Below are positions 23,950 through 29,744 of a stretch of 64,000 nt of DNA, piece by piece. The notes below the pieces were generated by a model that ran no database searches, had not been told where the DNA came from, and saw only the letters and a list, made by a program, of their open reading frames with translations. A program made the position numbers and the translations under genes. Source of the DNA: an uncultured delta proteobacterium (lineage in GTDB: Bacteria > Myxococcota_A > Polyangia > Haliangiales > Haliangiaceae); contig CAVWXW010000004.1 of assembly GCA_963759105.1 (NCBI GenBank), forward strand, positions 47,963 to 111,962, in the 5' to 3' direction. Numbering within the stretch: position 1 is the stretch's first letter; every line of letters begins with the position of its first letter.

Positions 23950-23964
23950 GCACGGCCTGTGCCA
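23950..23964 (-). promoter_or_regulatory. putative sigma54 (-24/-12) promoter for the lipoprotein-TolC-HlyD-PCAT operon
   Basis: Minus strand reads TGGCAC-AGGCC-GTGC (GG-N10-GC spacing) about 15 nt upstream of the lipoprotein ATG. The -12 element is GTGC, not the consensus TTGC. Confidence 0.45.
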
Positions 23965-24126
23965 TGGCCCGCGATGCGCAAGTGGGCGGGCCGCGCGGCG
24001 TCCGGCGCCGGCCTCGCCTGCCGCGCGGCGGCGCTCGGGGGGCTCGCCCCCGATCGTTGCTGCACACGGTCGGCGCAAGCCCGCGCCGGCCGGCGGGCGT
24101 TGTGTTGTAGGCTGGTGATCGTGGAG

Positions 24127-25464
24127 ATGACCACCGGCACCTGGTTGACCATGGGGGATGCGCCCGTCCTGCACGTGAGGCGCTGCCGACTCGAGGTCCT
24201 GTCGGGCCCCGACGAGGGCAAGGTGGAGGAGATGGCCGCGCAGGTGATCCGGATCGGCCGCAAGGGAGCCGACCTGGTGCTCAACGACCGCTCGGTCTCC
24301 TCGGTGCACGCCGAGATCACGCTCAACGAGCAGGGCTACCGCCTGCGAGATCTTGAGAGCTCCAACGGCACCTTCGCCGGCGGCATGCGCATCCGCGACG
24401 TGGACATCCCGCCGCGCACGACGATCACCGTCGGCCACACGCAGATCAAGTTCGTCCCGCTCGACGACACCGTCGCGCTCCCGCTGTGGAGCGACCCCGA
24501 GTACGCCGGCATGGTGGGCAAGAGCTGGGCGATGCGCCGGATGTTCGAGCTCATCGAGCGCATCGCGCCGACCGACACCACGGTGCTGGTGACCGGCGAG
24601 ACCGGCACCGGCAAGGAGCTGGTCGCCGAGGCCCTCCACCGCAGCTCGCGGCGGGCCAGCGGGGCGTTCGTGGTGCTCGACTGCGGCGCGATCCCACACC
24701 ACCTCATCGAGGACCAGCTGTTCGGCCACGAGCGCGGCGCCTTCACCGGCGCCATGGCGACGCGGGCGGGGGTGTTCGAGCGCGCCCACGGCGGCACCCT
24801 GTTCCTCGACGAGATCGGCGAGCTGCCGCCGGACGCGCAGTCCAAGCTGCTGCGCGCTGTCGAGACCCGGGTGGTGCGCCGCATCGGCGGCAACGAGTCG
24901 ATCAAGTGCGACGTGCGCCTGGTGGCCGCGACCAACCGCGACCTCGCGGTCGAGACAAACCGCGGCGGCTTCCGCTCCGACCTGTACTACCGGCTGGCGG
25001 TGGCCCGCATCGAGGTCCCGCCGCTGCGCGATCGCCTCGAGGATCTCGAGATCCTGGCCGGTCACTTCATCGACGAGCTGACCTCCGGCAAGGTCTCGCG
25101 CGCCCTGCCGGACGACTTCCTGGAGCGCGCGCGCCGCCACGCGTGGCCCGGCAACGTGCGCGAGCTGCGCAACGCGGTCCAGCAGGCATTGACCGCGCCG
25201 GACCTGCTCGCCATCGGCGACGGCCAGCCCAGGAGCCTGTGGTCGATCGACACGTCCGTGCCGTTCAAGCAGGCCAAGCAGCGCTTCGTGGACGAGTTCG
25301 ACCGGCGCTTCATGATGACCCTGCTCGAGGAGCACAGCTGGAACATCTCGTCCGCGGCCCGCGCCACCGGCGTGGATCGGATGTCGGTCTACAAGCTGCT
25401 CGAGCGGCTGGGGATCGAGCGCAGCGGCGGCGGCACCCCGGGCGACCCGGACGCGGCCGGATGA
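24127..25464 (+). CDS. sigma54-dependent transcriptional activator (EBP) with N-terminal FHA domain
   Basis: FHA region (VIRIGRKGADLVLNDRSVSSVHAEITLNEQGYRLRDLESSNGTF). AAA+ core GETGTGKE, the ERGAFTGA (GAFTGA) motif, and C-terminal HTH. 446 aa, intact. Confidence 0.9.
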   Translation: MTTGTWLTMGDAPVLHVRRCRLEVLSGPDEGKVEEMAAQVIRIGRKGADLVLNDRSVSSVHAEITLNEQGYRLRDLESSNGTFAGGMRIRDVDIPPRTTITVGHTQIKFVPLDDTVALPLWSDPEYAGMVGKSWAMRRMFELIERIAPTDTTVLVTGETGTGKELVAEALHRSSRRASGAFVVLDCGAIPHHLIEDQLFGHERGAFTGAMATRAGVFERAHGGTLFLDEIGELPPDAQSKLLRAVETRVVRRIGGNESIKCDVRLVAATNRDLAVETNRGGFRSDLYYRLAVARIEVPPLRDRLEDLEILAGHFIDELTSGKVSRALPDDFLERARRHAWPGNVRELRNAVQQALTAPDLLAIGDGQPRSLWSIDTSVPFKQAKQRFVDEFDRRFMMTLLEEHSWNISSAARATGVDRMSVYKLLERLGIERSGGGTPGDPDAAG

Positions 25465-25633
25465 CGCGGCGCGTTCGGTAGCGACATACCGCCGGCGAGC
25501 GCGACGCCCTGTTGTAGAGCCGGATCGACAGGGGGTGGGTACCCGATCCGCCAGAACGCCGCGGGCCGCGCCGGAACCGTCGAGGTTGCCGTGACCTGGC
25601 CCTCGGTATGTTGCTTGCACCACGCATTCTTCA

Positions 25634-28270: not shown

Positions 28271-28283
28271 TGGTCCCTCCACC

Positions 28284-29708
28284 TCAGAGTCGGAAGCCGA
28301 GCATGACGACGCCGCCGACGTAGGTGTCGGTGGCTCCACTGACGTCAACGTCCGAGCTCTCGTCGAGCCCGGTCGCCCACGCGCCGTCGCCGTTGAACGC
28401 GAGGATGATGCGCTGATAGGTCGCGGCGACGCGCACGAAGGTCGTGTCGCCGGCGTCGATCTCGAGGCCGACCTCGCCGCCGAAGCCGTGAAAGCGCGAG
28501 CTGCCGAACGCGGTGGCCGCCGTGATGCCGCCAGCGCTGAGCACGTGCAGGTACCACAGGTCGGCGCTGATCGAGAGGCGGTCGTCGCGCAGGCTGAGCC
28601 GCGCGCCGCCGCCGACATCGGCGTAGGCGTAGCGCGAGTCGGGGATGAGCAGCCCGTTGGGCCGGTTCGAGATGGCGAAGCCGAGCTGGTGATAGCCGGC
28701 GCCGCCGCGCACGTTCACGCGCTTGTGCACGGCGCGCCGGATCATCAGCCGGGCGCCGATGTGCTGGAGCGAGATGCCGAGCTGCTTTGTCTGCCCGCCG
28801 GCGGGAAAGGAGACCGAGGCGCCGATCGACCGCTGGTACACGAGGTCGGCGGACAGGCCGAGCGGGTTGACGTCGACGGTGCCGGACACGGCGACGCCGC
28901 CCGACGGGCTGCCCGACATGCTGAGCGGGCGCTCGTCCTCGGCCAGGTCGATCTGGTGCGCGAACTGGAGCTGGCGCGCGATGGCGGCCACGCCGACCGC
29001 GGCGCGCACCTGCATGGCCGGCGGCCGGCGCTTCGCCGCCCTGGCTCTGGCCCGGTCGCGCTGCTCGGCGACCGACCACTTCTCGACCGAGGCCTCCTGC
29101 TTCTGCTGGGCGGCGGTGAGCGACGCGCGCGCGGCGCCGGGGGCCTCGTTGCCGATCTGGCCGGGCTGGGTGATCACGGCCGCGGGGGCGGCCTGATCCA
29201 CGCCGGCCGCGACGGCGCCGTCGGTCTCGCCGTTGAGCGGCTCGGTCCAGTCGATGAGGTCGACCAGCTCGTCGATGATCGCCTCGCGGGTCGCTTCCGA
29301 AACGCGCTTGCCGCGGGCGTTGACGCTGAAGCGGTCCATCACGCGGCCGGTGCGCCCCTCGCGCACCGCGATGGTCAGCTTGCCGCCCTGCACCTCCCCC
29401 TCGATGATCGCGTCCGCGCCTACCTTCCTGGCCACCTGGGCCACGGACTTCATCGACTCCTTCGTGACGTTGAGGCGGCGGCGCGCGAGCCTGTACCTGC
29501 CGTACGGCAGGACCTCGTACAGGTCGGAGACGATCTCGAGGATCACGTCGTGCATGGCCTTCGACGTGGGGGCCGGCCCCACGAAGTCGGCGACCACGAC
29601 GCGCCGCTCCTGCTCCGCGCGCGCCCGGGGCGGCGCGGCGACCAGGACGGCAAACGCCGCCGCGAGCGCGGCGATGCGAGTGCAGGGCACGTGGATGTCT
29701 CGACTCAT
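28284..29708 (-). CDS. outer-membrane beta-barrel protein with an N-terminal periplasmic domain (paralog B)
   Basis: MSRDIHVPCTRIAALAAAFAVLVAAPPRARA. VVVADFVGPAP...VGADAIIEGEV. Ends ...GGVVMLGFRL*. Clearly paralogous to 26924..28270. Confidence 0.6.
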   Translation of the reverse strand: MSRDIHVPCTRIAALAAAFAVLVAAPPRARAEQERRVVVADFVGPAPTSKAMHDVILEIVSDLYEVLPYGRYRLARRRLNVTKESMKSVAQVARKVGADAIIEGEVQGGKLTIAVREGRTGRVMDRFSVNARGKRVSEATREAIIDELVDLIDWTEPLNGETDGAVAAGVDQAAPAAVITQPGQIGNEAPGAARASLTAAQQKQEASVEKWSVAEQRDRARARAAKRRPPAMQVRAAVGVAAIARQLQFAHQIDLAEDERPLSMSGSPSGGVAVSGTVDVNPLGLSADLVYQRSIGASVSFPAGGQTKQLGISLQHIGARLMIRRAVHKRVNVRGGAGYHQLGFAISNRPNGLLIPDSRYAYADVGGGARLSLRDDRLSISADLWYLHVLSAGGITAATAFGSSRFHGFGGEVGLEIDAGDTTFVRVAATYQRIILAFNGDGAWATGLDESSDVDVSGATDTYVGGVVMLGFRL

Positions 29709-29726
29709 GCGAATCACCGTCGATGA

Positions 29727-29744
29727 GTGCAACGGCGATGCCAC
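29727..29744 (-). promoter_or_regulatory. near-consensus sigma54 promoter upstream of the beta-barrel B / A / peptide 2 transcription unit
   Basis: Minus strand reads GTGGCAT-CGCCG-TTGCAC (TGGCAT-N5-TTGCA, with GG-N10-GC spacing), about 20 nt upstream of the ATG at 29708. Confidence 0.55.

Follow-up and report, generated by a model that had tools for sequence, protein, structure and literature searches.

A candidate sigma-54 regulon with an FHA-domain activator and a Ser/Thr kinase gene at a peptide-export locus of an uncultured myxobacterium

The window analyzed here, the whole 64-kb stretch of contig CAVWXW010000004.1 from an uncultured delta proteobacterium, has a GC content of 72% and carries at 16.5-30.8 kb a peptide-export gene cluster together with genes for an activator with a forkhead-associated (FHA) domain and a Hanks-type Ser/Thr kinase. 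Genes were placed by codon-position GC, lists of open reading frames (ORFs) and Pfam. In this region g11, barrel B, barrel A and the peptide gene lie on the minus strand, the kinase and activator genes on the plus strand, and the genes for a lipoprotein, an OEP outer-membrane factor, an HlyD adaptor, a peptidase-containing ATP-binding cassette transporter (PCAT) and a second HlyD adaptor again on the minus strand. An earlier sequence-only reading of this DNA had named most of these genes, and Pfam bears out its identities (FHA, Sigma54_activat and HTH_8 in the activator, Pkinase in the kinase, C39-ABC in the PCAT, as well as HlyD and OEP). For comparison we used about 15 syntenic loci from Kofleriaceae-like metagenomes, given L numbers below. 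Two loci were found among 185,579 species-representative genomes, in an uncultured 'delta proteobacterium' metagenome-assembled genome (MAG) and a Kofleriaceae MAG, and further syntenic DNA came from six metagenome contigs and from contigs reached through exact-protein look-ups. Wherever the contigs are long enough, tblastn gives the same order of g11, barrel B, barrel A, one to three peptide genes, the kinase gene (sometimes absent), the activator, lipoprotein, OEP, HlyD and PCAT genes.

The sequence-only reading had placed a sigma-54-type promoter on either side of the FHA-type enhancer-binding protein and the Hanks kinase, and two such motifs do bracket these genes. P_bB (TGGCATCGCCGTTGCA, 29728..29743, minus strand) sits 19 nt upstream of the barrel B ATG at 29708; its motif TGGCAT-N5-TTGCA had been given as 29727-29744, one base too wide at each end, and it is near-consensus as claimed, matching 10 of the 11 specified positions of TGGCAC-N5-TTGCW. 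P_lipo (TGGCACAGGCCGTGCT, 23949..23964, minus strand) holds the TGGCAC-N5-GTGC motif (TGGCACAGGCCGTGC) exactly where it had been reported ahead of the lipoprotein gene, at 23964..23950 on the minus strand, with 14 nt from the C of the -12 GC to the lipoprotein ATG at 23935; it departs from the consensus at -12, which reads GTGCT. Counts within the window are not significant for either motif: TGGCAYN5TTGC has one match against 0.14 expected and TGGCAYN5KTGC two against 0.66, and 13 of 100 shuffles reach the observed number in both cases. Of 14 distinct orthologous loci, 12 retain gcgTGGCAYnnCCGTTGCAC ahead of barrel B, while the flanks diverge and barrel B identity drops to 44%. A CGGCAT variant replaces TGGCAY in L016, and P_bB is absent only in L007 and L008, in which barrel B directly follows g11 without an intergenic promoter. 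Similarly, TGGCAC-N5-(G/C)TGCT lies exactly 29 nt before the lipoprotein ATG in all six aligned loci with different 5-nt spacers (AGGCC, GTGGC and GTCGC), and the lipoprotein upstream regions of L017 and L018 also fit this pattern. In total, TGGCA[CT]N5NTGC[ATC] has 17 matches on both strands of 184 kb, against 1.6 expected from dinucleotide shuffles, all at positions orthologous to P_bB or P_lipo. The -24/-12 elements are thus invariant and the spacers variable across loci whose proteins are only 44-60% identical, which is the signature of selection on the elements themselves, and the conserved position, orientation and elements support both motifs as genuine sigma-54 promoters.

It is also evident that two is too low a number, because three further promoters of this type bring the total to five. 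P_g11 (GGAACGACCCTTGCA, 30675..30689, minus strand) has 14 nt from the C of its GC to the g11 ATG at 30661, and the pattern GGAA[CT]N5TTGC[AT] occurs once per locus, only at P_g11, in 13 of 13 loci. P_hlyD (TGGCCCTTCGGTTGCA, 21176..21191, minus strand) lies 12 nt before the ATG at 21163 and is conserved in L001, L002, L009, L010 and L017. P_stk (GGTATGTTGCTTGCA, 25605..25619, plus strand) lies 14 nt before the kinase GTG, a distance of 13-14 nt across loci, and its pattern GGTAY-N5-TTGCA has eight matches in 235 kb, all at the orthologous site and in every kinase-bearing locus (window expectation 0.06). The GG-N10-GC spacing is found at all five promoters (TGGCAT-N5-TTGCA, TGGCAC-N5-GTGCT, GGAAC-N5-TTGCA, TGGCCC-N5-TTGCA and GGTAT-N5-TTGCA), all of which lie upstream of first genes, are co-oriented with them and are conserved at orthologous sites while their spacers vary; the strict patterns have no match elsewhere in 184-235 kb. 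We consider it highly probable that the promoters are real, and we infer from their sequences that they depend on sigma-54 and where their start sites lie.

The additional promoters change the transcription units. The activator and kinase genes had been taken as one central pair, which does not hold, for the kinase gene has its own P_stk and looks like a target of the regulon; co-transcription of the two was considered and dropped, since the conserved 170-nt gap between them holds the GGTAY-N5-TTGCA promoter. Both flanking operons had been described as transcribed away from the two genes. This is correct for the lipoprotein unit, which is divergent from the activator, and incorrect for the barrel B-barrel A-peptide operon, which is convergent with the kinase gene and shares with it an intrinsic terminator with a 16-bp stem (26626..26664, minus strand) in the convergent gap after the peptide gene. 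Another intrinsic terminator after g11 (29861..29888, minus strand), with a stem and T-run visible in the alignment of L001, L010 and L013, separates g11 from the barrel operon. The lipoprotein gene had also been seen as the head of a TolC-HlyD-PCAT operon; it does have P_lipo, but the internal P_hlyD precedes HlyD-PCAT, and so the lipoprotein gene is not simply the head of an exporter operon. A sigma-70 consensus scan of 22800-31300 gave no site, and Rfam gave no match in 16000-32000.

Four of the five promoters stand at a fixed 12-14 nt from the start codon, namely P_hlyD (21164-21176), P_lipo (23936-23950), P_stk (25619-25633) and P_g11 (30662-30675). The first genes g11, barrel B, lipo, hlyD and stk are without a Shine-Dalgarno sequence, and the internal genes have one (GGAGGG at barrel A, a strong AAGGAAGGA at the peptide gene and CAGGAG at PCAT). 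If the GC is at -13/-12, transcription would begin 2-3 nt ahead of the start codon at a spacing of 12-14 nt. Together with the missing Shine-Dalgarno sequences, this suggests that the mRNAs from four of the five promoters are probably leaderless or near-leaderless, where leaderless means 5 nt or fewer, as defined for the Myxococcus xanthus pexR mRNA (PMC12754779).

Each promoter is preceded by a candidate enhancer (upstream activating sequence, UAS) or a related conserved block. The candidate UAS of g11 is a 16-bp palindromic sequence, GCCGACCGCGGTCGAC (30776..30791, minus strand), 86 nt upstream of P_g11; it is found 84-87 nt upstream (96 in L005) in 11 of 13 loci, with no match in L014 and L015. 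That of barrel B, GCTACCCGTGTACAGC (29786..29801, minus strand), is preceded by a GGGAnTTTTCCCC element and lies 43 nt upstream of P_bB, and 41-43 nt upstream in every locus. The candidate UAS of lipo, GCCGACCGTGTGCAGC (24059..24074, minus strand), sits between the divergent activator and lipoprotein genes, at 95 nt upstream of P_lipo and 47 nt ahead of where the activator gene starts, and its distance to the promoter falls into two classes, 84/85 or 94/95, which are one helical turn apart. The palindromic candidate UAS of hlyD, GCCGACCGCGCTCGGC (21275..21290, minus strand), is 84 nt upstream of P_hlyD, and the conserved block of stk, GTAGAGCCGGATCGAC (25514..25529, plus strand), is 75 nt upstream of P_stk in the window and 74-75 nt across loci. 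The sites of g11 and hlyD, both almost perfect palindromes, match on both strands, while the lipo site joins the left half of the g11 site to the right half of the barrel B site. Measured from the end of the 16-mer to the GG, the window distances of 43, 75, 84, 86 and 95 correspond to ~4.1, 7.1, 8.0, 8.2 and 9.0 turns of 10.5 bp. A degenerate 16-mer built to cover the sites of g11, lipo and barrel B finds these three and no other in the window (0.27 expected), and the composite of a dyad, 35-100 nt and a promoter occurs four times in the window and in none of 300 shuffles. The short core CCGYGTRCAGC was rejected as a marker because it is too common at 72% GC (28 matches with at most one mismatch, 17 expected).

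Other conserved non-coding blocks are seen in 21200-21260, 23965-24058, 29744-29830 and 30690-30775. GGGG-N5-6-CCCC adjoins each dyad, with GGGAATTTTCCCC at the barrel B promoter; TGGGG follows the dyads by 5-6 nt, and GCGCAAG/CTTGCGC or GCGATC lies 20-30 nt upstream of the -24 element.

The activator (24121..25464, plus strand) is an enhancer-binding protein with FHA, AAA+ (GAFTGA) and HTH_8 domains according to Pfam (Sigma54_activat PF00158, 3.7e-67; FHA PF00498, 2.9e-14; HTH_8, 5.5e-05), and its GAFTGA loop is at 24736. Its best relatives in the PDB include ZraR, NifA, NtrC, FleQ and PspF, with alignments that begin only at about residue 101-137, and the PDB search matched no solved structure to the FHA region joined to the AAA+ core. 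It is the most conserved protein of the locus, being 83-97% identical among loci compared with 45-70% for the lipoprotein and 54-62% for the barrels. The helix-turn-helix (HTH), the Arg/Ser/His/Asn phosphothreonine pocket of the FHA domain and the N-terminal TTGTW-T-G are invariant, loci without the kinase included, and the FHA motifs GR, S-x-x-H and SNG do not vary among six orthologues that likewise include such loci. Every locus that extends from the peptide genes to the lipoprotein gene has the activator, and no other enhancer-binding protein is encoded in the window; it is therefore probable that this adjacent protein drives the promoters. Since NtrC-type activators have their receiver where this protein has its FHA domain, a phosphothreonine ligand probably gates the activity of the activator. 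The conserved GTG start of the activator follows a conserved TGTTGTAnnCT by 6-7 nt (24100-24123, plus strand), with a -10-like hexamer TAGGCT 7 nt upstream, so that this region looks like a leaderless promoter of the sigma-70 type. Because the lipo dyad lies 47 nt before the activator start, autoregulation of the activator may also be possible.

The kinase (25634..26611, plus strand; PF00069, 1.3e-37) is a soluble Hanks-type Ser/Thr kinase of 325 aa with a GTG start. It keeps the VAIK Lys, HRDLKPxN, DWG, SPE and an activation-loop (T/S)-x-T and has a degenerate glycine loop (ARGGHA); Pfam analysis found no sensor or transmembrane domain. It is the only Hanks kinase in the window. Eight distinct loci span the region, and in six of these (the window, L001, L002/L003, L006, L010 and L013) it adjoins the activator. 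It also occurs in L017, L018 and one JGI contig, all three reached through one peptide cluster and possibly of the same lineage as L006. The sequence-only reading had proposed that this arrangement puts peptide export under kinase control, which is plausible on sequence grounds. That the adjacent kinase supplies the phosphothreonine recognized by the FHA domain, thereby closing a feedback loop, would seem to have a chance somewhat short of even.

The genes to be regulated make up a double-glycine export set that is complete by sequence, with a C39-ABC exporter bearing its Cys motif, a substrate with a GG leader, HlyD and OEP. The precursor peptide (26672..26881 or 26887, minus strand; 69-71 aa) was recognized as an ORF with the GG leader LEELDDVAGG. 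Its leader and core are MDDDNKMPEFALEELDDVAGG and CGGGRRGDRNFFNMQCPCPPPQDNSNDMLMMMMMMQMFQDPRGGRRRR, and the core is rich in Cys and Asn/Gln, with MMMMMMQMF and an RRRR tail. Peptide genes number one to three per locus, and in all copies looked at (L002, L006, L009-L011, L013-L015 and the window) we found a GG leader, an N/Q-rich stretch, a run of 5-7 Met (e.g., DMLMMMMMMQMF) and a C-terminal RRRR; nearly all cores have Cys. The family is rare, with only five clusters among 5.8 billion, and the peptide may be a toxin, a signal or a metal-binding peptide. The PCAT (17378..19630, minus strand) combines a C39 peptidase (PF03412, 4.5e-32; Cys motif DCGAAC) with an ABC transmembrane domain (ABC_membrane) and a nucleotide-binding domain (ABC_tran). 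Pfam also identified the HlyD-type adaptor (19643..21163, minus strand), the second HlyD-family adaptor (16490..17341, minus strand) and the OEP/TolC-like outer-membrane factor (21306..~22880, minus strand; start approximate). In the first HlyD-type adaptor (19643-21163), some 230 aa at the N-terminus form a cytoplasmic extension in which residues 101-182 weakly match GAF_2 (E = 0.004), a feature unusual for a membrane-fusion protein.

Barrel B (28284..29708, minus strand) consists of a signal peptide, a TolB-N/LpoB/PelC-like periplasmic domain, a disordered linker and a barrel, and barrel A (26924..28270, minus strand) is its tandem paralogue with ~30% identity. The AlphaFold model of barrel B (mean pLDDT 68, and 70-88 across most of two folded domains) predicts an N-terminal alpha/beta domain and a C-terminal barrel, the latter modeled as most like the 10-stranded OmpT and OpcA. 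Relatives of barrel B number 16 among 5.8 billion protein clusters and 2 among 185,579 species representatives, and no Pfam or NCBIfam family covers either barrel. The lipoprotein downstream of P_lipo (22907..23935, minus strand) has a Receptor-L/LRR-like repeat domain in Pfam, and g11 (29948..30661, minus strand) encodes a conserved lipoprotein of 237 aa with no family match. Pfam and NCBIfam searches with the peptide, barrel A, g11 and the lipoprotein gave nothing beyond weak OMP or Receptor-L matches, and a PDB sequence search with g11 returned only noise. Upstream of g11 there is a small secreted protein (30913-31170, minus strand) with a repetitive tail rich in Lys, Asp and Ala (KDKDKSKAK repeats), followed by a terminator-like hairpin at 30823-30838; L001 and partly L010 have a relative of this protein. 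Outside the cluster, an ORF at 13334-14764 (plus strand) joins a fatty-acid desaturase (residues 10-273) to CarD_TRCF_RID and CarD_C (310-468), which is maybe an odd fusion or two genes merged by the ORF call.

The best overall explanation, in which we place moderate confidence, is that 16.5-30.8 kb forms a self-contained sigma-54 regulon under the FHA activator. What was observed directly are the presence, spacing and conservation of motifs, the synteny and the domain content, and the proposed mechanism goes beyond these as follows. The activator would probably be made from its own leaderless promoter of the sigma-70 type. It would bind the candidate 16-bp dyads (GCCGACCG/CGGTCGRC and variants) 43, 75, 84, 86 and 95 bp upstream of the five promoters and use ATP to open the sigma-54 RNA polymerase complexes there. 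Five units would respond, namely g11, barrel B-barrel A-peptide, the kinase, lipoprotein-OEP and HlyD-PCAT-second HlyD, and hence the peptide, its processing exporter and the envelope partners would be expressed together. Local candidates for the phosphothreonine are the autophosphorylated activation loop of the kinase and a phosphorylated N-terminal TTGTW-T-G of the activator itself. Since a sigma-54 promoter also precedes the kinase gene, a feedback loop between kinase and activator would result, although both its sign and the kinase-FHA link are matters that we infer. A bolder version is an autonomous kinase-FHA-sigma-54 switch, in which basal activator turns on its partner kinase and the four other units through mostly leaderless mRNAs, and so commits cells, possibly in an all-or-none manner, to the production and export of an undescribed Met/Cys-rich peptide with a poly-Arg tail, which would act together with two dedicated outer-membrane barrels, possibly in metal handling; this we regard as speculative and rather doubtful.

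Several points weigh against a regulon of this kind. It is unusual for sigma-54 transcription to begin as close as 2-3 nt to a start codon. The promoters other than P_bB deviate from TGGCAC-N5-TTGCW, with -24 elements of GGAAC, GGCCC and GGTAT at P_g11, P_hlyD and P_stk, and a pattern relaxed enough to take in four of the five comes with much background (16 observed, 6 expected); support for the promoters other than P_bB therefore rests on position and conservation. The compared loci are homologous, so that the conservation counts, including the 17 matches in 184 kb, are not independent events. Among the candidate enhancers, only the right half of the stk block fits the dyad, and the dyad patterns were derived post hoc from the very sites they describe and hence speak for specificity and not for independent discovery. 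No rpoN gene was found in the 64-kb window, and the host is an uncultured Haliangiales/Kofleriaceae-like soil myxobacterium known from metagenome assemblies alone. L009 and L011/L012 lack the kinase gene; their peptide genes are followed at once by that for the activator, and both promoters and the FHA pocket are kept, which means that kinase control of export cannot be obligatory across the family. In one lineage, represented by L020 (1574-7708) and L021 (1693-2574), the place downstream of the barrel A-peptide unit is taken not by the kinase and activator genes but by convergent genes for a cation diffusion facilitator (Cation_efflux/ZT_dimer) and CzcA-CzcB-OEP heavy-metal efflux, neighbors that give a hint of a metal link for the Met/Cys-rich peptide.

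According to the alternative that survives best, the promoters are real but the kinase is not the input of the activator. It would instead be a product of the regulon with another substrate, such as the cytoplasmic extension of HlyD, the PCAT or an unrelated protein, and the FHA domain would be served by a kinase encoded elsewhere or act as a constitutive oligomerization module. In its favor, the activator with an intact FHA pocket and the promoters are retained in L009 and L011/L012, which lack the kinase. The kinase gene, having its own sigma-54 promoter, is downstream of the activator in the circuit, and the protein has no sensor domain. Myxobacteria moreover encode many Hanks kinases. However, the kinase adjoins the activator in six of eight distinct loci and in three further contigs, and conservation of the two proteins is high and extends to the Thr of the activation loop and the N-terminal Thr cluster of the activator. 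We thus hold this alternative to be unlikely, though by no means negligible.

A second alternative also accepts the promoters and assigns the dyads to another transcription factor, or the promoters to an enhancer-binding protein encoded elsewhere. The dyad variants differ considerably between promoters, and the additional conserved blocks (GGGG-N-CCCC, GCGCAAG/CTTGCGC and TGGGG) could be taken in its favor. Yet the local activator never fails in loci that span the peptide genes to the lipoprotein gene and has no competitor in the window, one dyad lies inside the divergent activator-lipoprotein intergenic region, and the HTH is as invariant as the dyad cores. The 16-bp dyad is a typical format for activators with a Fis-type HTH such as NtrC. 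We judge the second alternative quite improbable.

That the motifs arose by chance in intergenic DNA rich in GC, with the genes expressed from unrecognized promoters of the sigma-70 or extracytoplasmic function (ECF) type, could appeal to the non-significant window counts, the commonness of the most degenerate pattern and the position of four of the five motifs, implausibly near the start codon for a conventional mRNA. It is very improbable given invariant -24/-12 elements with variable spacers in loci of such diverged proteins, 17 matches where 1.6 are expected, all at orthologous sites, and the same architecture five times beside an enhancer-binding protein in a region (22800-31300) without a sigma-70-like promoter. 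Equally improbable is a peptide-modifying role of the kinase, in which it would phosphorylate Ser/Thr of the precursor like the kinase domains of class III/IV lanthipeptide enzymes: its gene adjoins the precursor gene and NCBIfam gave weak matches to the LanL and LanKC kinase regions, but these score well under the cut-offs of the families and can be put down to the general fold of kinases, and peptide genes are present in loci without the kinase. As a modifying enzyme for peptides that are made by the ribosome and modified after translation (RiPPs) it was rejected, there being no lyase or cyclase domain and only few, non-conserved Ser/Thr in the peptide cores.

A regulon under the FHA activator has several known relatives. 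Jelsbak, Givskov and Kaiser reportedly described FHA-domain enhancer-binding proteins in M. xanthus in 2005. These proteins likewise have an N-terminal FHA domain in place of the receiver, a sigma-54 AAA+ core, a C-terminal HTH and a presumed Ser/Thr kinase input, and they also come from Myxococcota; here, in contrast, a compact local five-promoter regulon is found at a peptide-export cluster and not at developmental genes, a dedicated kinase gene with its own sigma-54 promoter lies next door, and the host is Haliangiales/Kofleriaceae-like. At the NtrC-glnAp2 system, dyad enhancers act by DNA looping with helical-phase dependence, the receiver is under His-Asp phosphotransfer and mRNA leaders are normal. 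The candidate dyads upstream of -24/-12 promoters are alike in the present locus, while the receiver with its phosphotransfer and the normal leaders are not. EmbR-PknH of Mycobacterium tuberculosis pairs an FHA-bearing activator with the Hanks kinase that is encoded beside it and controls it, but EmbR is of the SARP/OmpR type and acts on sigma-70 promoters, PknH is a membrane receptor kinase, and neither sigma-54 nor AAA+ is involved. In the PexR-ahpC/katB system of M. xanthus, pexR is divergent from a sigma-54 target, with three UASs and an mRNA of its own proposed to be leaderless (PMC12754779). The divergent activator-target layout, several UASs in a short intergenic region and an activator mRNA that is probably leaderless from a sigma-70-type promoter are shared with the present locus; unlike the activator here, PexR senses through GAF, also represses, has no FHA domain or kinase and serves peroxide defense (PMC12754779).

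As for the output, PCAT systems such as class II microcins, ComAB, BlpAB and Rtg (PMC12219008, PMC7018657, PMC6959990) have the same GG-leader precursor and C39-ABC exporter with the Cys motif, and Gram-negative microcin systems also have HlyD and TolC-type partners. The known PCAT systems answer to two-component, Rgg or global regulators and not to sigma-54 with an FHA activator, and the Met-rich, poly-Arg-tailed core, the paired barrels and the two lipoproteins of the present locus are without a described counterpart among them. In the literature we found no description of Met-rich GG peptides or of sigma-54-controlled PCAT systems, and sigma-54 control of natural-product genes in myxobacteria is the stated subject of PMC7910581.

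The regulatory principle is thus already established, FHA-type enhancer-binding proteins being an established myxobacterial class, and the advance would be incremental unless the feedback switch or the function of the peptide proves new. What is particular here is five sigma-54-type promoters in 10 kb, the fixed spacing that makes four of them near-leaderless in layout, candidate enhancers spaced by whole helical turns, a partner kinase inside the regulon and an undescribed peptide/barrel/PCAT output. The geometry predicts sigma-54-dependent leaderless transcripts, which would be unusual if true. With five promoters of graded consensus match and phased candidate enhancers in 10 kb, and with the kinase within the regulon, the locus would be a compact test bed for the gating of a sigma-54 activator by an FHA domain rather than by a receiver, and it ties this mode of regulation to a rare peptide-export system.

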